From an uncultured Candidatus Rokubacteria bacterium (GTDB lineage: Bacteria > Methylomirabilota > Methylomirabilia > Rokubacteriales > DASRDR01), in assembly GCA_963805625.1 (NCBI GenBank), contig CAWDVE010000004.1, positions 64,001-128,000 of the forward strand: a DNA stretch of 64,000 bases, given 5' to 3'. The translations under genes were made by a program, and so were the position numbers. The notes below the pieces were generated by a model that saw only the letters and a program-made list of their open reading frames with translations, was not told the DNA's origin and did no database searches. Each line of letters begins with the position of its first letter. The stretch's first letter is position 1. Shown here in pieces: positions 55,953-64,000 of the stretch.

Positions 55953-57524
55953 ATGTATCTGGCATACTTCGGCCTGCGCGAGCCCCCGTTCTCGATCACG
56001 CCGGACCCGCGCTTCCTCTACATGAGCGCTCGGCACCGCGAGGCGCTCGCGCACCTGGTCTACGGCGTGGGCGAGCACGGCGGGTTCGTCCAACTCACCG
56101 GCGAGGTGGGAACCGGCAAGACGAGCGTGTGCCGGTGCCTGCTCGAGCAGCTACCGAACCACGTCGACATCGCCCTCATTCTCAACCCCCGCGTGAGCCC
56201 CGTGGAGCTTCTCGCTCTCGTGTGCGACGAGCTGCGAATCCCGTATCCAGCCGGCACCAAGACCCAGAAGGAGCTCGTGGACCGGCTCCATCGTCATTTG
56301 CTCGAGGCTCATGGGCGCGGCCGGCGGACCGTTCTCATCATCGACGAGGCCCAGAATCTCTCGCCCGAGGTCCTGGAGGAGGTGCGCCTCCTCACGAATC
56401 TCGAGACGACGACCGATAAGCTCCTCCAGGTGATCCTGATCGGCCAGCCGGAGCTGGCGGCGCTCCTCGAGGAAGCGAAGCTCCGCCAGCTCGCGCAGCG
56501 CGTTACGGCTCGGTACCATCTCGAGCCGCTGTCGCGACCCGAGACCCGGGCCTATGTTCGCCACCGCCTTGGCGTGGCGGGACGTCACGCTCCGTTGTTC
56601 ACGCCGTCGGCGGTGCGCCAGGTTCACCGAGAAACGTACGGCATCCCGCGCCTCATCAACGCCATCGCCGATCGTGCCCTGCTCGGCGCCTATACGCGGG
56701 AGCAGTCGCAAGTCGATGCGGCCACCGTCCGGCGCGCGGCGGCCGAGGTGCTAGGTCGGCCGCTTCGCCTGTGGCAGCGATGGGCGCGGGAAGCGACCGC
56801 CGCCGCCCTCGTTGCGGCCACGGCGGCCACCGCATTCGTCCTCCTCGCCCCGGGTGAAATCGGCCGGGACGAGGCTCGCCGTGCGACCGCCGTGACGGGA
56901 CCGGCGGACCCCACACTGACCGGCGTATCTGCCACGGCGGCGAGCCTGACCGCGGCGGGAACGTCCGAGCGCCCCCCGCGCCCGCGCCTCGCGGACGTCC
57001 TCCGTGACCCGGCGATCCCGGCCACAAAGGGGGACGCCCTGGCCGTACTCCTGGGCCTCTGGGGTGTGCACGCTGCGAACCAGCCGGATTGCGAAGGGCC
57101 ACCCGCGGGGGCGCTCGAGTGCCTCGCGTCGGTCGGCAACTGGCAGAAGCTTCGCCGGCTCGATCTTCCCGCCGCGCTTGAGCTCGCGGGTCCGGGGGGC
57201 GAGCGGCGCTACGCCGTTCTCACGGCGCTCACGCCATCGGAGGCAACGCTTCGGTTCGGCGACCGTGTCGTCACCGCGCAGCTGGCCGAGGTCGAGTCAT
57301 TCTGGGACGGCACCTTCGTCATCCTCTGGCGACCTCCGCCGGTGGAGCTCCCGGTCCGGCGCGGATCCAGTGGTCCTGCCACCGACTGGCTCCGGCAGCG
57401 CATGGCGCGGGCTGCCGGCGCCGATCTGCCGCTCGAGAATGGCCGGCCGTACGACCAGGGCCTGTGGGAGCGGGTGACGGCCTTCCGGCCCGACGTGCCG
57501 CGGCTTTCCGCAGGGGAACCTTAG
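55953..57524 (+). CDS. gspA: ExeA/GspA family AAA ATPase (peptidoglycan-binding domain appears shortened)
   Basis: MYLAYFGLRE.PFSITPDPRFLY, GEVGTGKT, IIDEAQ, GQPEL, GIPRLIN, TM segment and C39-like domain. Confidence 0.9.
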   Translation: MYLAYFGLREPPFSITPDPRFLYMSARHREALAHLVYGVGEHGGFVQLTGEVGTGKTSVCRCLLEQLPNHVDIALILNPRVSPVELLALVCDELRIPYPAGTKTQKELVDRLHRHLLEAHGRGRRTVLIIDEAQNLSPEVLEEVRLLTNLETTTDKLLQVILIGQPELAALLEEAKLRQLAQRVTARYHLEPLSRPETRAYVRHRLGVAGRHAPLFTPSAVRQVHRETYGIPRLINAIADRALLGAYTREQSQVDAATVRRAAAEVLGRPLRLWQRWAREATAAALVAATAATAFVLLAPGEIGRDEARRATAVTGPADPTLTGVSATAASLTAAGTSERPPRPRLADVLRDPAIPATKGDALAVLLGLWGVHAANQPDCEGPPAGALECLASVGNWQKLRRLDLPAALELAGPGGERRYAVLTALTPSEATLRFGDRVVTAQLAEVESFWDGTFVILWRPPPVELPVRRGSSGPATDWLRQRMARAAGADLPLENGRPYDQGLWERVTAFRPDVPRLSAGEP

Positions 57525-57534
57525 GGCGAGGGCC

Positions 57535-58395
57535 GTGTCTTACATCCTCGATGCCCTCAGGAAGGCCGAGCGCGACCGTCAGGTCTCGCGGGTTCCCACC
57601 CTCGCCACCTCGCACGGAGGTGCGGAGTTGCTCCGCCGACCGCACTGGGCCTGGGTTGTCGCAGCCGGCGCGGTCGCCCTGAGCGCGGTCGTCACGTACA
57701 GCCTTCTGTGGGCGCCGACCCGTCGGGATCCGGTGCGCGAGGCAGGGCGACCGCCAGCGGCGGCGGCTGACCCGGCCGCGGCGCGCGCGAGCGCCGATCC
57801 CGAGGCGCCGCCTCCGGCGCTCGAGCGCGCGCCGGAGGGCTCCGCGGCGGCTCCGGCCCTCACTCCCGGCCCGGCCGTCGAGCGGCCGCCTGGTGGTCAC
57901 GTCCCCGCGAGGCCGCGCGTCGCGCCCACGCGGACCGTGGGCGCCGGCGACGACCTCCGGCGGGCGCCGGACAGGAGGGATTCACCGGACGCGCCTGCGA
58001 CCAGGCGGGCGTCGGCGGCCGAAGCGCGCCCACCGTCGCCTGCCGTCATCGATCGGGCGCCAGTCCCCGAGCTGCGTCCAGGTGGTGATCCCGTCGCCCA
58101 GCCGGCGGTCGTGGCGGCGCCCGCGCCGCTACCCGATGCCGGCGCGGCCAGGGCCGCCCAGCCCGCATCCCCTCAGACGCTCCCGCGGCTCACGCTCGAC
58201 GTGCTCGTGTACTCGGAGGTTCCTGCGGAGCGGCTCGTCTTCATCAACGGACGGAAATACGTCGAGGGACAGACGCTGGATGGTGACGCGGTCGTCGAGC
58301 AGATCACGCCGGACGGGGCGGTCCTGCAGCACCAGGGCAAGCGGATCGTGCTGCGACCGAAGCTCAATCCATACACCCGTCCTGGGTCGCCTTGA
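57535..58395 (+). CDS. gspB: GspB/ExeB family protein
   Basis: SYILDALRKAE.DR N-terminus, TM segment, Pro-rich linker, VYS..PAER.VFING..Y.EG. Confidence 0.88.
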   Translation: MSYILDALRKAERDRQVSRVPTLATSHGGAELLRRPHWAWVVAAGAVALSAVVTYSLLWAPTRRDPVREAGRPPAAAADPAAARASADPEAPPPALERAPEGSAAAPALTPGPAVERPPGGHVPARPRVAPTRTVGAGDDLRRAPDRRDSPDAPATRRASAAEARPPSPAVIDRAPVPELRPGGDPVAQPAVVAAPAPLPDAGAARAAQPASPQTLPRLTLDVLVYSEVPAERLVFINGRKYVEGQTLDGDAVVEQITPDGAVLQHQGKRIVLRPKLNPYTRPGSP

Positions 58396-58513: not shown

Positions 58514-59512
58514 ATGAACTTTCTTCGTCGCGCGATCCGCATCGTTCACACCCGCCTCGGTCTCGTCTCGAACAACCGGGAGCTTCTCACGCGTTCGGAG
58601 TACTTCACCGACCGCGTACCCCAGTCGCTCCTGACCGACTACCATCGCGTCGACGACGTGCCGTGGGACGGCGCGCCGACGGGCGTGGACGCGGAGATCC
58701 GCATCGTCGACACGCCCGGTCTCGCACCCGCGATCGCGCTCGAGCCCGACCGCGTGCTCGCGGTGGGGGACTGGACGGCTCTCGAGGCGGGCAACTCCGA
58801 CCGCCGCTACTCCCTCTTCGGGAACCTGGGGTACGTCTTCCGCTACGCGATCCACGCCCTGGAGCGCTACCACGACACGTGGTCGTTCCACGCGAGCGCC
58901 ATGGTCGACGACAAGGGCGACCTCTGGCTCATCCCGGGCGGCGCCGGCGCGGGCAAGACCGTGTTCCTGCTGGAGGGGCTCACGCGAGGCTGGACCATCT
59001 TCTCGACGGAGATGACGCACGTCCGTCTGACGGACGGCGGATACGAGTTCTACAAGGGCTCCCTCTTCGACAACATCCGGCTCGGTACCCTCCTCTACGA
59101 CTTTCCCGCCGTCCTCGAGCGGCTCGGGACCGCGTTGCCGCCGTCGCCGGACCCCTGGGGCTCGAAGATCGCGCTCGACCTCCAGCACGTGCAGACACCG
59201 GCGGACGTGCTGGTGAGCCCGTCCCTGCGGATCGTCAGCCCGAAGGTGGAGTCGGGCCGGGACCGGGCGGTCGTCACGCCGCTCGATCGCCGGGAGAAGC
59301 TGGTCAAGCTCCTCTTCGACAACGCCACCGAGAAGCAGGGGACCACCGTGCTCCTCTACGACCGGCTGCCCGTCCCGTCGCTCGACACGCCGGAGCTCAT
59401 GGCCCGGCGGCTCCACGCCATGCAGGGGCTGGTGGACCGGGCCACGATCAAGAGCGCCCGGAGCACCCTCTGCGGGGCCCGCAACTGCATGGAGGGTCTG
59501 CTGGATGAGTGA
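58514..59512 (+). CDS. HPr kinase-related P-loop protein
   Basis: FHASAM, Walker A PGGAGAGKT and GWTIFSTE. Overlaps the comA start. Confidence 0.7.
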   Translation: MNFLRRAIRIVHTRLGLVSNNRELLTRSEYFTDRVPQSLLTDYHRVDDVPWDGAPTGVDAEIRIVDTPGLAPAIALEPDRVLAVGDWTALEAGNSDRRYSLFGNLGYVFRYAIHALERYHDTWSFHASAMVDDKGDLWLIPGGAGAGKTVFLLEGLTRGWTIFSTEMTHVRLTDGGYEFYKGSLFDNIRLGTLLYDFPAVLERLGTALPPSPDPWGSKIALDLQHVQTPADVLVSPSLRIVSPKVESGRDRAVVTPLDRREKLVKLLFDNATEKQGTTVLLYDRLPVPSLDTPELMARRLHAMQGLVDRATIKSARSTLCGARNCMEGLLDE

Positions 59513-60350
59513 GCGCGACGAGGCCGCGCGCCGGCCGGCCTGGGACGGCGTCATCGAGATGCCGGTCCCGGAGCGCCTCCGAAAGCCGCGCGATGGTGGC
59601 TGGACGATGGTCATCGACAAGGGGCTCGGCCTCAACGCGATCGACGACCTGATGCAGGTGGCGGCGCCGGTCATCGACGTGCTGAAGCTCACCTTCGGAA
59701 CCTCGGCCTTCTTCGGTCGCGACGTCCTCAAGGAGAAGGTGCGGACGGTCACGGCCCACGGCGTCCACTGCATGCCGGGCGGGACCTTCCAGGAGGTCGC
59801 GGTCTGGCAGGGCGCGCTCGACCGCTACCTCGATCGGGCGGGCCAGCTCGGCTTCAACGCGATCGAGGTCTCGGACGGCACCATCGAGATGGACCGCCGG
59901 ACCCGGGCCGAGGCCATCCAGAAGGCCGTGAAGGCGGGCTTCCGCGTCCTGTCGGAGGTGGGCAAGAAGGATCCCGCCGACGCCCAGCCGATGGCGACGC
60001 TCGCCGAGGTCGTCAACGCGGACCTCGATGGCGGCGCGTTCATGGTCATCATGGAGGCGCGCGAGGCGGGCAAGGGCGTGGGCATCTACGACGCCTCCGG
60101 CCTCCCCAAGGAAGCGGAGATCGAGGCTTTCCTGAAGGGCGTGCGCGATCCCGGCCGCGTCCTCTGGGAGGCGCCGCTCGGTCCCCAGCAGCGGTACCTC
60201 GTCCTCCGGTTCGGCCCCAACGTCAACCTGGGCAACGTCGCTCCCGAGGACATCCTCGCTCTCGAGGCGCTCCGCTGCGGCCTCCGGGGTGACACTCTCA
60301 AGCGCGCGTGGCTGACCGACCCGCGGTTCCGCGCGCGGCGATTGCCCTAG
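59505..60350 (+). CDS. comA: Phosphosulfolactate synthase
   Basis: KPR..G.TMVIDKG, K..FGTS, PGGT, IEVSDG, SEVGKK, EARE.G, WEAP and FGPNVNLGN...LE.LR.GLRGDT. Confidence 0.93.
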   Translation: MSERDEAARRPAWDGVIEMPVPERLRKPRDGGWTMVIDKGLGLNAIDDLMQVAAPVIDVLKLTFGTSAFFGRDVLKEKVRTVTAHGVHCMPGGTFQEVAVWQGALDRYLDRAGQLGFNAIEVSDGTIEMDRRTRAEAIQKAVKAGFRVLSEVGKKDPADAQPMATLAEVVNADLDGGAFMVIMEAREAGKGVGIYDASGLPKEAEIEAFLKGVRDPGRVLWEAPLGPQQRYLVLRFGPNVNLGNVAPEDILALEALRCGLRGDTLKRAWLTDPRFRARRLP

Positions 60351-60360
60351 GCCGGGATCA

Positions 60361-61173
60361 GTGGACATCACTGGCCTCGACGCCGGGACCCGGGTTGCGC
60401 TCGGGTTCGCGATCGGCACTTTCGGGACCTTGATCGGAGCCGGCGGCGGCTTCATTCTCGTACCCCTCCTGCTCTTGGGCTACCACTTCCCGCCGCCCGA
60501 GGCCGTGGGGACCTCGCTGAGCCTGGTGTTCCTCAACGCCCTGTCGGGGAGCATCGCGTACCTCCGCCAGCGGCGGGTGGACCTTGCCCTGGGATGGCGC
60601 TTTGCGCTGGCGACGCTTCCTGGCGCGATCGGCGGCGCCTACGTGACGCGCGCGCTCTCCTCGCGCGCGTTCGGGCATGCCTTCGGCGTGCTGCTCATCG
60701 CGGTGGCGGTGCTCCTGTTCCTCGGTCGGACGGCCGGGCCGTCCTCCCGTGCGGGCGCGCGCCAGATCGTCGACGCGAGCGGAGGAACCCACCACTATCG
60801 CGTCGATGTCTGGAAGGGCGTGCTGGTCAGCCTCGTGGTCGGGGTGATTTCCAGCATCTTCGGGATCGGCGGCGGCATCATCCACGTGCCGTTTCTGATC
60901 GTGGTGCTGGGCCTGCCCGTGCACGTGGCCACGGCGACCTCCCACTTCGTGCTGAGCATCTCCGCGTTTGCCGGCGCGCTCACGTTCCTGGCCCTGGGCC
61001 ACGTGGACCTGCCCACCGTCGGGTTCATGGGGGTTGGGATCCTCGCGGGGGCCCAGCTGGGTGCGCGGATGTCGATCGGCACGAGCGCCGGGGTCATTCG
61101 TCGGGTGCTGGCTGGTTCGTTGGCCATCGTGGGCGCCCGGATGGCCCTGATGGGTGGAGGTTACTTGCCGTGA
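60361..61173 (+). CDS. Sulfite exporter TauE/SafE family protein
   Basis: GTLIGAGGG...VP, AVGTS, GIGGGIIHVP, ATATS and GAQLGA. Confidence 0.9.
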   Translation: MDITGLDAGTRVALGFAIGTFGTLIGAGGGFILVPLLLLGYHFPPPEAVGTSLSLVFLNALSGSIAYLRQRRVDLALGWRFALATLPGAIGGAYVTRALSSRAFGHAFGVLLIAVAVLLFLGRTAGPSSRAGARQIVDASGGTHHYRVDVWKGVLVSLVVGVISSIFGIGGGIIHVPFLIVVLGLPVHVATATSHFVLSISAFAGALTFLALGHVDLPTVGFMGVGILAGAQLGARMSIGTSAGVIRRVLAGSLAIVGARMALMGGGYLP

Positions 61174-61249
61174 TGTGCCGGCGGTGGGTTCCGTCGTTTC
61201 CGGCCGACGAGAGACGTCTTTCGCGCTTGATGTTCAGGGAGAGTGACGC

Positions 61250-62767
61250 GTGCGCTACGGCTTCGTGATCGACCAGACGCGGTGCATCGGGTGTCACGCC
61301 TGCACGGTGGCGTGCAAGGAGGAGAACCGCGTTCCCCTCGGCACGTTCCGGACGTGGGTGAAGTACGTCGAGAAGGGCGAGTTTCCGAACACCCGCCGCC
61401 ACTTCGCCGTCCTTCGCTGTAACCACTGCGACAACGCCCCCTGCGTGACCATCTGCCCCACGGTGGCGCTCTACCGGAGGTCGGACGGGATCGTCGACTT
61501 CGACCGCGACCGCTGCATCGGCTGCAAGTCCTGCATGCAGGCGTGCCCGTACGATGCGCTCTACATCGACCCCGAGACGCAGACGGCCGCGAAGTGCAAC
61601 TTCTGCGCGCATCGGGTGGAGCGGGGGCTCGAGCCCGCGTGCGTCATCGTCTGTCCCGAGCGGGCGATCCTCACCGGAGACCTCGACGATCCCGAGAGCG
61701 AGGTCTCGCGGGTGATCGCCCGGGAGCACGTGAGCGTCCGGAAGCCGGAGCAGGGGACGCGTCCGAAGCTCTTCTACGTCGGGGCCGACCACGCCACGCT
61801 CGCGCCCTCGCTCCAGGACGCGCCGGTCGCGACCATGTGGGGCCAGCACGCGAGCGAGCCCGGCTCGCTGGTCGCCCTCGCCGGCGGACGGCAGCCGCAC
61901 GGGTCGGCGGGGAGGACTGCGAAGTCCGTCGAGACTCTCGGCCGCACGGTGTACGACGTGTCGCACGAGCCCCGACCCTGGGGGTGGCGCGTCGGGGCGT
62001 ACCTCTGGACCAAGTCGGTCGCCGCCGGCGCCGCGCTCGCCGCCGCGGCGGCCGCGCTCGGCGAGGGGAGCGCCGCCGAGCTGGGCCTTCCACTCATCGC
62101 GCTGCTGTTCCTCTTGCTCACCGGGGGCTTGCTGATCGTCGACCTGAAGCGCCCCGAGCGGTTCCACTACCTCCTCCTCCGGCCGAACCCGCGCTCCTGG
62201 CTCGTCCTGGGCGCCTGGATCCTGCTCGCGTTTGGCGCGGCGCTCGGCCTCTGGATCCTGGCGGCCGTTGCCGGCGGGGGCGCGATCCTCGGCGTCCTCG
62301 CGATCCCCCTTGTGCTCCTCGCGCTCGGCGTCGCGGGCTACAGCGCGTTCCTCTTCGCCCAGGCGGAGGGGCGGGATTTCTGGCAGAGCCCGCTGGTGCT
62401 GCCGCATCTCCTGGCGGGCGCCGCGACGGCTGGAGCGGCCGTGAGCCTCCTGGTGACGCCGTCGTCGGCCACCGCGCGGAGCGTGCTCCTCGTGGGGCTA
62501 GGGGTGAACGTGTTTCTGGTCCTCGCCGAGTGCTACACGCCGCACGGGAACACGGACTCGCGGGCCGCCGCGCGGATCATCACCTGGGGCTCCCTGAGCC
62601 GGGTCTTCTGGGGCGGGGTGATCGTTACTGGCACGCTGCTCCCCGCGCTGCTCGTGATCCCGGCCTCCAGCGCCACCAGCGTCCTGGCGGGCGCCCTGGC
62701 CCTCGTCGGCCTCTACCTCTGGGAAGACTGCTGGGTGCGGGCGGGGCAGGCCGTCCCGCTCAGCTGA
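61250..62767 (+). CDS. 4Fe-4S electron-transfer subunit fused to an NrfD/PsrC-type membrane anchor
   Basis: CIGCHACTVAC, CNHC...PC...CP, CIGC.SC..ACP and KCNFC...PAC...CP, then W...VGAYLWTK, DL.RPERF and RAGQAVPLS. Confidence 0.92.
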   Translation: MRYGFVIDQTRCIGCHACTVACKEENRVPLGTFRTWVKYVEKGEFPNTRRHFAVLRCNHCDNAPCVTICPTVALYRRSDGIVDFDRDRCIGCKSCMQACPYDALYIDPETQTAAKCNFCAHRVERGLEPACVIVCPERAILTGDLDDPESEVSRVIAREHVSVRKPEQGTRPKLFYVGADHATLAPSLQDAPVATMWGQHASEPGSLVALAGGRQPHGSAGRTAKSVETLGRTVYDVSHEPRPWGWRVGAYLWTKSVAAGAALAAAAAALGEGSAAELGLPLIALLFLLLTGGLLIVDLKRPERFHYLLLRPNPRSWLVLGAWILLAFGAALGLWILAAVAGGGAILGVLAIPLVLLALGVAGYSAFLFAQAEGRDFWQSPLVLPHLLAGAATAGAAVSLLVTPSSATARSVLLVGLGVNVFLVLAECYTPHGNTDSRAAARIITWGSLSRVFWGGVIVTGTLLPALLVIPASSATSVLAGALALVGLYLWEDCWVRAGQAVPLS

Positions 62768-62777
62768 AGGACGAACC

Positions 62778-64000
62778 ATGCCGCAATCTCCCTCGATCGA
62801 GCCGCTCCATCCGGCGGCGCAGAACCTGACGGCGCTACCGGGCGGCCTCGCGAGCTACCCGCCCGTCGAGCGCTGGGAGGACTGGGCCGAGTACGACCCG
62901 CAAGCCTGGCCGCGGCGCGTCGAGCGCCGCTATCAGCTCGTCCCCACCATCTGCTTCAACTGCGAGGCGGGCTGCGGGCTCCTGGCCTACGTGGACAAGG
63001 ACCGCCTCACGATCCAGAAGTTCGAGGGAAACCCGGAGCATCCCGGCAGCCGTGGGCGCAACTGCGCGAAGGGACCGGCGACCCTGAATCAGGTCGAGGA
63101 TCCCGAGCGCATCCGCCACCCGTTGAAGCGGGTCGGGCCGCGGGGCGGGGGGCAGTGGGAGCGCGTCAGCTGGGACCAGGCGCTCGACGACATCGCCGCG
63201 CGCATCAGGAAGGCGCTCGTCGAGGGCAGGCGCAACGAGGTCATGTATCATGTCGGCCGCCCGGGCCACGAGCTCGTATACCACCAGCGCATCATGCACG
63301 CCTGGGGGATCGACGGGCACAATTCGCACACCAACGTCTGCTCGGCCTCCGCGCGCGCGGGCTACGCGTTCTGGAGCGGCCTCGACCGCCCGTCGCCGGA
63401 TCACGCCAACGCCCGGTTTATCCTGCTCCTGTCCTCGCACCTCGAGACGGGCCACTATTTCAACCCGCACGCCCAGCGGATCATCGAGGGGAAGAAGCGC
63501 GGCGCGAAGATCTGCGCGATCGACACGCGGCTCAGCAACACGGCGTCGATGGCCGACTGGTGGCTGTCCCCGTGGCCAGGAACCGAGGCCGCGCTCCTCC
63601 TCGCCATGTGCCAGCTGATCATCGCGGAGCGGCGCTACGACCGCGAGTTCATCCGCCGCTGGGTGAACTGGGCGGAGTACCTCCGGGAGGAGCATCCCGA
63701 CAAGCCCCAGACCTTCGAGACCTTCGAGGCGATCCTCCCGACGCTCTACGCGGAGTTCACTCCGGCGTTCGCCGAGCGGGAGTCCGGCGTCCCGGCCGCG
63801 ACCATCGAAGAGGTGGCGCGGGAGGCCGCGCGGGCCGGCTCCGCGCTGGCGACCCACGTGTGGCGGAACGCGGCGGCGGGGAACCTCGGGGGCTGGCAGG
63901 TCGCGCGGGCGCTCCAGCTGCTCGTCGTGCTCGTGGGCGCCGTCGCCACGCCGGGGGGCACCGCGCCCTCCTTCTACAACAAGGCCGTCCCGGCGCCCCC
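62778..64000 (+). CDS. Molybdopterin (DMSO reductase family) oxidoreductase catalytic subunit, 3' partial
   Basis: Open from ATG 62778 to the window end: CFNCEAGC...CAKG FS0 motif, PLKRVG.RG.G.W..VSWD.ALD and HNSHTNVCS. No twin-Arg signal. Confidence 0.93.
   Translation, partial: MPQSPSIEPLHPAAQNLTALPGGLASYPPVERWEDWAEYDPQAWPRRVERRYQLVPTICFNCEAGCGLLAYVDKDRLTIQKFEGNPEHPGSRGRNCAKGPATLNQVEDPERIRHPLKRVGPRGGGQWERVSWDQALDDIAARIRKALVEGRRNEVMYHVGRPGHELVYHQRIMHAWGIDGHNSHTNVCSASARAGYAFWSGLDRPSPDHANARFILLLSSHLETGHYFNPHAQRIIEGKKRGAKICAIDTRLSNTASMADWWLSPWPGTEAALLLAMCQLIIAERRYDREFIRRWVNWAEYLREEHPDKPQTFETFEAILPTLYAEFTPAFAERESGVPAATIEEVAREAARAGSALATHVWRNAAAGNLGGWQVARALQLLVVLVGAVATPGGTAPSFYNKAVPAP

Follow-up and report, generated by a model that had tools for sequence, protein, structure and literature searches.

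The 64,000-nucleotide stretch analysed here (the window; positions 64,001 to 128,000 of contig CAWDVE010000004.1 from an uncultured Candidatus Rokubacteria bacterium) carries near its end a gene for a P-loop protein that overlaps by 8 bp a gene of the comA, or (2R)-phospho-3-sulfolactate synthase, family. The adjacency of these two genes goes far beyond chance, since it is found in 72 of 72 loci, and the pair most likely constitutes an undescribed route of sulfolactate desulfonation. In this reading, in which we have moderate confidence and whose direction and substrate we infer, the P-loop protein is a sulfolactate 2-kinase that feeds a ComA running backwards, and the products are phosphoenolpyruvate (PEP) and sulfite.

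A preliminary description of the window, made from the letters alone, had arrived at the same idea for a cluster of five genes. A check of the open reading frames (ORFs) agrees with it on the layout: all five are co-directional on the + strand and tightly spaced, with gaps of 10, 76 and 10 bp from comA onward.

58514..59512, + strand: P-loop protein, 332 amino acids (aa); no Pfam or NCBIfam match; predicted compact fold of the PEP carboxykinase (PEPCK)/HPr kinase (HPrK) type; candidate (R)-sulfolactate 2-kinase
59505..60350, + strand: comA, (2R)-phospho-3-sulfolactate synthase family, 281 aa (PF02679, E 1e-85; TIGR03849, 321.6 bits)
60361..61173, + strand: tauE, TauE/SafE-family exporter, 270 aa (PF01925, E 6e-53)
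61250..62767, + strand: fusion of a four-cluster 4Fe-4S protein with an NrfD/PsrC anchor, 505 aa (Fer4_11 and PF03916)
62778..64000, + strand: molybdenum (Mo) bis-pyranopterin guanine dinucleotide subunit, first 407 of 943 aa (PF00384, PF04879; CFNCEAGC; HNSHTNVC)

The Mo gene runs past the end of the window to contig position 129609. TauE scores 180 bits for PF01925 against a cut-off of 32.6, and it may transport sulfite. It is also true, as described earlier, that the window holds no comB; the single PF04029 match of the genome sits on another contig (comC was not searched by family).

Two units in one cluster

The grouping of the five genes into one cluster did not survive a wider comparison. 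They are two units, the kinase-comA pair and a separate module of tauE, the Fe-S/NrfD fusion and the Mo subunit. The Mo subunit is encoded in 142 of 251 genomes of the phylum, mostly without the kinase, and in a sister family the module is present in 120 of 159 genomes and the kinase in only one. Among the 72 kinase loci, the Mo gene adjoins the pair in 11, all of which belong to the 18 Rokubacteriales-type loci (some of the misses are contig ends). One conserved five-gene operon is thereby ruled out. Contigs from four RNA runs of three studies bear related pieces over all five genes (shares 0.05-0.10), and single contigs cross the kinase/comA and anchor/Mo junctions, but they come without a silent control and so are not evidence of transcription.

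The kinase-comA pair across genomes

Within the phylum, the kinase-like gene is present in 29 of the 251 genomes, and comA lies directly downstream of it in every one of the 29. comA occurs in 39 of the 251 genomes, and 29 of these 39, a share counted within this phylum, also have the kinase. A scan of GTDB with two motifs returned 72 kinase loci, many of them from the phylum genomes just counted. Judged by record titles, these loci span Methylomirabilota, Thermodesulfobacteriota/Deltaproteobacteria, Chloroflexota, Clostridia/Peptococcaceae and Planctomycetota. comA adjoins the kinase in all of them, downstream in 70 and upstream in two (L104 and L105). Because the two-motif scan misses divergent members, a divergent metagenome clade was searched separately. 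Among the best 80 of its 162 loci, a comA ORF adjoins the kinase in 70, a partial comA does so in 3, and in the remaining 7 the kinase match lies no more than about 65 bases from a contig end. The linkage surmised from a single window is thus near-absolute. In the divergent clade (L181-L260) an MGH1-like glycoside hydrolase gene is found on the opposite strand in 54 of the 80 loci, probably as shared synteny.

The P-loop protein and ComA

The P-loop protein, whose family comprises 218 clusters at 50% identity, has no match in Pfam (E<=0.1) or NCBIfam (E<=0.01); sequence searches against the PDB gave nothing meaningful, and a search of the ESM Atlas gave unnamed clusters only. A structure model built from 58 homologs (predicted local distance difference test score, pLDDT, 94.9; an earlier model from 13 sequences with pLDDT 48.8 was discarded) predicts a member of the PEPCK/HPrK superfamily, which backs the kinase-like call of the preliminary description. 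The top Foldseek matches of the model are PEP carboxykinases (E 7e-9), and the list includes PEPCK structures with bound beta-sulfopyruvate. In a wide structural search, the model aligned with PEPCK over residues 1-332 (Z 12.4, root-mean-square deviation (rmsd) 5.0, 277 residues aligned) and with HPr kinase over residues 121-332 only (Z 9.5, rmsd 3.0, 123 aligned), while unrelated folds scored Z <5. With PEPCK and HPrK the protein shares the predicted fold, the GxxGxGKT loop and, as it appears, a His before the P-loop; it differs from them in its length (332 aa versus >500), in its low identity (8-16% in structural alignments), in an apparent Thr-Glu at the acidic pair and in the lack of a family match.

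Eight residues, R98, H126, K148, T165, E166, D186, R189 and R299, show no variation among the 58 homologs (58 of 58). PEPCK and HPrK have a motif of His, P-loop Lys and acidic pair, to which H126, K148 and E166 may correspond, and the basic R98, R189 and R299 would suit an anionic small substrate. In PEPCK, a C3 acid sits at a metal with a His ligand and receives the phosphate on its O2. By analogy, phosphorylation of the 2-hydroxyl of sulfolactate would follow the same geometry, although a common fold by itself shows no function.

ComA of the window lies above the TIGR03849 equivalog cut-off of 280 bits and aligns to the solved synthase 1qwg (E 4e-55), K155, E121 and R186 corresponding to K137, E103 and R170, presumably the active-site residues of that enzyme. 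Of 135 ComA sequences linked to the kinase, at least 97% retain these three sites and the DKG, PGGT, EVGKK and RGDT motifs. Two distant members of the linked group score above the synthase cut-off, and the synthase motifs are retained, whereas six paralogs of the same phylum that lack kinase linkage are altered at several of them; the chemistry of linked ComA is therefore probably that of PEP and sulfite. Each of three divergent ComA paralogs (L114, L115 and L116), which have ~25% identity and altered motifs, comes after a gene of 456-472 aa that by eye resembles MmgE/PrpD.

Gene neighbourhood and the proposed route

Importers, racemases, PEP-consuming kinases, sulfite exporters and dsrAB, all found near the pair, favour a backwards, catabolic route. 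A LarA racemase and a D-2-hydroxyacid dehydrogenase are each encoded beside the pair in 22 of the 72 loci. Pyruvate phosphate dikinase (PPDK) is encoded upstream in 15 loci and pyruvate kinase nearby in 6, so that 21 have one or the other. Importers of the tripartite tricarboxylate transporter (TTT) type are represented by TctC (12 loci) and TctA (11), and SsuA-like importer genes also recur; exporters are represented by TauE (15, of which 12 are among the 18 Rokubacteriales-type loci) and YeiH (5), and regulators by GntR (6). The order is GntR-comA-kinase-pyruvate kinase-TTT in Formimonas warabiya (L105) and TTT-LarA-GntR-kinase-comA in L073, where dsrAB, together with dsrC, lies about 2 kb downstream. 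Four of five scanned LarA neighbours pass the LarAH5 malate-racemase cut-off, and sulfolactate is the sulfonate analogue of malate. A catabolic route would need a racemase because sulfolactate in the environment is thought to be mainly (S) (PMC11193023), the product of ComA being (R)-phosphosulfolactate (PMC9457059).

In the proposed route, the PEPCK-fold protein would phosphorylate the 2-hydroxyl of (R)-3-sulfolactate with ATP, and ComA in reverse would eliminate sulfite from the resulting phosphosulfolactate to leave PEP, in the manner of glycerate kinase followed by enolase. Pyruvate kinase or PPDK would then recover the phosphate and pull the unfavourable elimination. A LarA-family racemase, where present, would turn the common (S)-sulfolactate into the (R) form. 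The sulfite would be exported via TauE or YeiH or, in anaerobes, reduced by DsrAB; in the organism studied here it could alternatively be oxidised by the cytoplasm-facing Mo/Fe-S/NrfD enzyme.

Several observations extend the neighbourhood of the pair. Both Peptococcaceae loci have, flanking the pair, nickel-pincer isomerases that score above the cut-off of NF052515, the uncharacterised group 22 (L168:17914-18999 and L169:6511-7770). A two-gene Fe-S pair resembling fumarase or tartrate dehydratase accompanies kinase-comA in 8 of the 72 loci from three phyla (L047, L048, L052, L057, L062, L086, L100 and L103) and also in L125 and L126; by analogy with malate, it might hydrate sulfoacrylate to (R)-sulfolactate, or it may be another sulfo-lyase or a plain fumarase. 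In deltaproteobacterial loci (L060, L063, L066, L070 and related ones) a conserved run of genes for aldehyde:ferredoxin oxidoreductase, CoA-transferase A/B, D-2-hydroxyacid dehydrogenase, PPDK, kinase, ComA, TctCBA and glutamate-mutase-like GlmS/GlmL may encode a longer sulfonate pathway.

The Mo/Fe-S/NrfD module and the possible fate of sulfite

Fifty of the 72 source genomes (L052-L106 without L086, L088, L089, L101 and L102) were searched for comB, dsrA and the Mo family. dsrA is above cut-off in 19 and present as fragments in 4 more; the Mo family is near full length in 11 others, and no genome has both it and dsrA. All 10 kinase-bearing Chloroflexota searched carry the Mo family and lack dsrA. 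The genome studied here (completeness 99.9%) gave no dsrA match, and none of the 29 kinase genomes of its phylum is among the 14 in that phylum that have dsrA.

The features ascribed to the Mo subunit in the preliminary description, namely no twin-arginine translocation (Tat) signal and an H-x3-C element (SHTNVC), were borne out: the sole RR in its first 55 aa is in PRRVER, the cofactor motif is CFNCEAGC, and the ligand region reads HNSHTNVC, with Cys as the ligand. The Fe-S/NrfD fusion has four Cys motifs and eight hydrophobic segments. The Mo family is large (each of the 7999 candidates scored met the E 1e-20 threshold, and identity is 76-93% for the best 120), and the order of Fe-S/anchor gene and then Mo gene is kept in Thermomicrobium, Rhodococcus and Natrinema. 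Cultured carriers of the HNSHTN[VI]C family are found among Thermomicrobium, Rhodococcus and haloarchaea (L107, L108 and L109), with a more distant relative in Sulfurovum (L178).

By its context the module is a sulfur enzyme. tauE precedes it also in genomes without the kinase; in four Rokubacteria genomes without a kinase match it lies by tauE (Pfam-confirmed in 3 of the 4) and SoxY/SoxZ-like genes (2 of the 4), one of the four adding a dioxygenase-rhodanese fusion, a flavocytochrome c flavoprotein and YeeE, and in Rhodococcus it follows DsrE and TusA. Sulfite as its substrate, with the module disposing of what the pair releases, is a plausible proposal that falls somewhat short of being probable. 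It draws on the comparison with SoeABC of Allochromatium vinosum (bSreA/SoeA lineage), which likewise combines a Tat-less Cys-ligand Mo subunit, an Fe-S subunit and a membrane anchor and makes cytoplasmic sulfite oxidation plausible (PMC10100899, PMC4378227). The two differ in build, the module having a fused Fe-S/anchor (B-C) followed by A rather than separate subunits in the order A-B-C, and an NrfD anchor (PF03916) where a SoeA-like proxy has DmsC (PF04976). They also differ in descent: the Mo subunit is 24-28% identical, over part of its length, to three SoeA-like proxies, and a joint clade with them is rejected by the approximately unbiased (AU) test (p-AU 0.013, on 19 of 29 rows). The proxies (L172, L179 and L180) are themselves uncharacterised and were picked because they have the A-B-C layout, a DmsC anchor and a sequence motif. 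Identification of the Mo subunit as SoeA is therefore ruled out against these proxies. In our trees, which are quick ones with long branches and include neither a characterised SoeA nor PsrA from Wolinella or Thermus, the family stands as an uncharacterised clade of its own (support 100 in the Shimodaira-Hasegawa-like approximate likelihood ratio test, SH-aLRT), nearest to an Azoarcus enzyme from an arsenic locus and to deltaproteobacterial enzymes, with PhsA branching apart. Close to these clades, a survey of the superfamily describes Cys-ligand lineages that seem to be novel (PMC10100899), and the Mo family may be one of them.

It is nearly as plausible that the module works on polysulfide, sulfane sulfur or thiosulfate and lies beside kinase-comA merely because sulfur genes cluster, with no direct link of substrate. 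Its wide occurrence without the kinase, and the restriction of its adjacency to Rokubacteriales-type loci, fit this well, as does the position of the Rhodococcus homolog beside DsrE and TusA. Its best named matches are PhsA in NCBIfam and, in the PDB, 2vpw, the polysulfide/thiosulfate reductase of Thermus. PsrABC and PhsABC, like the Tat-less PsrA-like enzymes of Sulfurovum, share the H-x3-C ligand region and the NrfD/PsrC anchor; they differ in that the Mo subunit is far under the PhsA cut-off (194 versus 694 bits) and apart from PhsA in trees, and in that Fe-S protein and anchor are fused. The nearest relative outside the family is a frameshifted, Tat-less Sulfurovum gene (38-45% identity; left out of the trees), and Tat-less enzymes of Sulfurovum, a group to which this gene may belong, have been classed as putative polysulfide reductases of the cytoplasm (PMC10045233). 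In favour of sulfite, on the other hand, are the company that TauE keeps with the module, the persulfide-dioxygenase-like neighbours, which would make sulfite, and the 10 kinase-bearing Chloroflexota searched, all with the Mo family and without dsrA.

Weighing the direction and the substrate

The points that weigh against the backwards route should be gathered here. Sulfite addition to PEP is energetically favourable on general chemical grounds, and the reverse is probably uphill, so that it would need a strong pull through removal of both PEP and sulfite. PPDK is reversible and could supply PEP instead of consuming it, and sulfite is not the only possible cargo of TauE/SafE exporters, which can also carry sulfonates. 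In the P-loop protein, the acidic pair of PEPCK/HPrK appears to be Thr165-Glu166, as mapped via weak profile alignments (E 0.14-0.4) rather than superposed coordinates. The genome studied here has no clear LarA (best E 1e-4). Among the 80 divergent loci, no TauE or YeiH gene lies near the pair, and the common neighbours look unrelated. The likeness of the Mo module to SoeABC is one of layout only, because its Mo subunit falls outside the SoeA-like clade. The split between DsrA and the Mo family is no more than suggestive, since it follows phyla and the genomes are not independent, and 16 of the 50 genomes, many of them small and probably incomplete assemblies, have neither. ComA, finally, is described solely in the forward direction, the addition of sulfite to PEP, in the available part of PMC9457059.

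To these points comB must be added. Its absence alongside the kinase, which the earlier description had proposed to check, fails as a general rule and is ruled out as such. The comB-family gene of this genome lies between ORFs that by eye are argG-like and pgsA-like, and comB occurs in 113 of 135 phylum genomes of >=90% completeness, compared with 39 of 251 for comA, so that in this phylum it looks housekeeping. It is above cut-off in 25 of the 50 kinase genomes searched, which makes a futile cycle possible, and a profile search places it inside 2 of the 72 loci (an earlier tblastn count gave one). The 10 kinase-bearing Chloroflexota searched gave no comB match. In the Peptococcaceae locus L104 (L168:8197-13611) the order is comA-comB-kinase-pyruvate kinase-LarA-TctCBA, with comB between comA and the kinase; metabolite repair is one conceivable role for the phosphatase there.

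The opposite direction, which we consider unlikely, is that ComA adds sulfite to PEP and that the PEPCK-fold protein passes the phosphate to ADP, giving sulfolactate and ATP instead of losing the phosphate via ComB. Sulfolactate would then serve sulfite detoxification or be an osmolyte or precursor, TauE would export it, and the Mo enzyme could supply the sulfite. This agrees with the documented direction of ComA (PMC9457059), with the upstream PPDK genes, with comB inside two loci, and with the divergent loci as a stand-alone pair that has neither importers nor sulfite exporters. A ComC-like gene of the Ldh_2 family lies directly upstream of the kinase in L098 (6841-7950; best NCBIfam match L-sulfolactate dehydrogenase, below cut-off). 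Yet pyruvate kinase, which would compete for PEP, adjoins the pair in six loci; importers of the TTT and SsuA-like kinds, GntR regulators and racemases are what catabolic operons typically contain; and anaerobes with dsrA (19 of 50) would profit from the release of sulfite and not from its fixation.

That the substrate is another 3-substituted lactate, such as a methylthiolactate thioether or a malate-like hydroxy acid, from which the ComA homolog would eliminate a group other than sulfite to leave PEP after phosphorylation by the kinase, is improbable as well. What speaks for it are neighbours that score in the malate racemase and fumarate hydratase families, the genes for CoA-transferase, aldehyde oxidoreductase and glutamate-mutase-like proteins on the flanks of the deltaproteobacterial loci, and the lack of sulfur neighbours in the divergent clade. 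Against this stand the equivalog scores and retained synthase motifs of linked ComA, from which the six unlinked paralogs deviate, and the recurrence of TauE, YeiH, SsuA-like and dsrAB genes beside the pair. An HPrK-type regulatory protein kinase/phosphorylase acting on ComA or on a carrier, which the HPrK match and the tight translational coupling to comA might suggest, is very unlikely given that PEPCK aligns over the full length (277-289 residues, 1-332) and HPrK over 121-332 only, and given the three invariant arginines.

Of the backwards route as first put forward, then, a part stands: linkage, fold and the neighbours in other phyla favour it, whereas comB co-absence, the single unit and the SoeA identity do not hold.

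Relation to known pathways and significance

The kinase-comA pair resembles the ComA-ComB-ComC pathway of PEP-dependent coenzyme M synthesis and its bacterial XcbB counterpart in the ComA family, its motifs and the (R)-phosphosulfolactate intermediate. It differs from them in its conserved partner, a PEPCK-fold P-loop protein, and in a context that suggests catabolism. Among the genes that recur beside the pair, no XcbC-type lyase stood out (comC, comDE and xcbC-E were not searched by family). A functional parallel is the (R)-sulfolactate sulfo-lyase SuyAB, with racemisation by SlcC/ComC and the SlcHFG importer. Its route, which is known to run, has the net result proposed here, sulfolactate to pyruvate and sulfite (PMC11193023), also must invert (S)- to (R)-sulfolactate (PMC11193023, 10.1101/197269), and has similar importer and exporter neighbours. 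The enzymes are unrelated: here sulfolactate would be phosphorylated and sulfite then eliminated via PEP, and a nickel-pincer LarA racemase would replace the two dehydrogenases. The cluster encodes no UxaA-family sulfo-lyase, the one PF04295 match of the genome being a single fused ORF on another contig.

Neither a kinase-ComA desulfonation route nor a "sulfolactate kinase" was found in the literature searched, which leaves most subscription journals and supplements outside, and the main text of a LarA survey does not contain the word "sulfo". Sulfoquinovose breakdown has sulfolactate as an end product, and SuyAB, SlcC and ComC are the markers by which surveys score sulfolactate degradation (PMC13372026). 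If the route proposed here is true, these surveys overlook degraders in soil Rokubacteria, in Chloroflexota and among uncultured sulfite reducers, and many of the comA genes at present called biosynthetic are catabolic. It would also add a new kinase family and likely a new LarA substrate, and would offer a testable function for a large uncharacterised clade of Mo enzymes with cultured carriers. The broadest version, a widespread third route of C3-sulfonate desulfonation that joins a mini-PEPCK sulfolactate kinase, reversed ComA and a nickel-pincer racemase, its sulfite being respired by DsrAB or, in Rokubacteria and Chloroflexota, oxidised by a new non-SoeA Mo sulfite:quinone oxidoreductase, is tentative and on the whole rather doubtful.

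Other genes around the cluster

A gspA/gspB (ExeA/ExeB-like) pair lies upstream at window positions 55953-58395; it stays with the cluster only in close relatives, and no functional link was seen. Immediately 3' of the Mo gene is a gene for a GT87 glycosyltransferase (L001:9453-10925). Further downstream (L001:11013-12758) lies a gene for a thiamine diphosphate (ThDP) enzyme that is above the NF006203 cut-off and only distantly Xsc-like; an NF006203 ThDP gene is found in 10 of the 72 kinase loci, all of the Rokubacteriales type.

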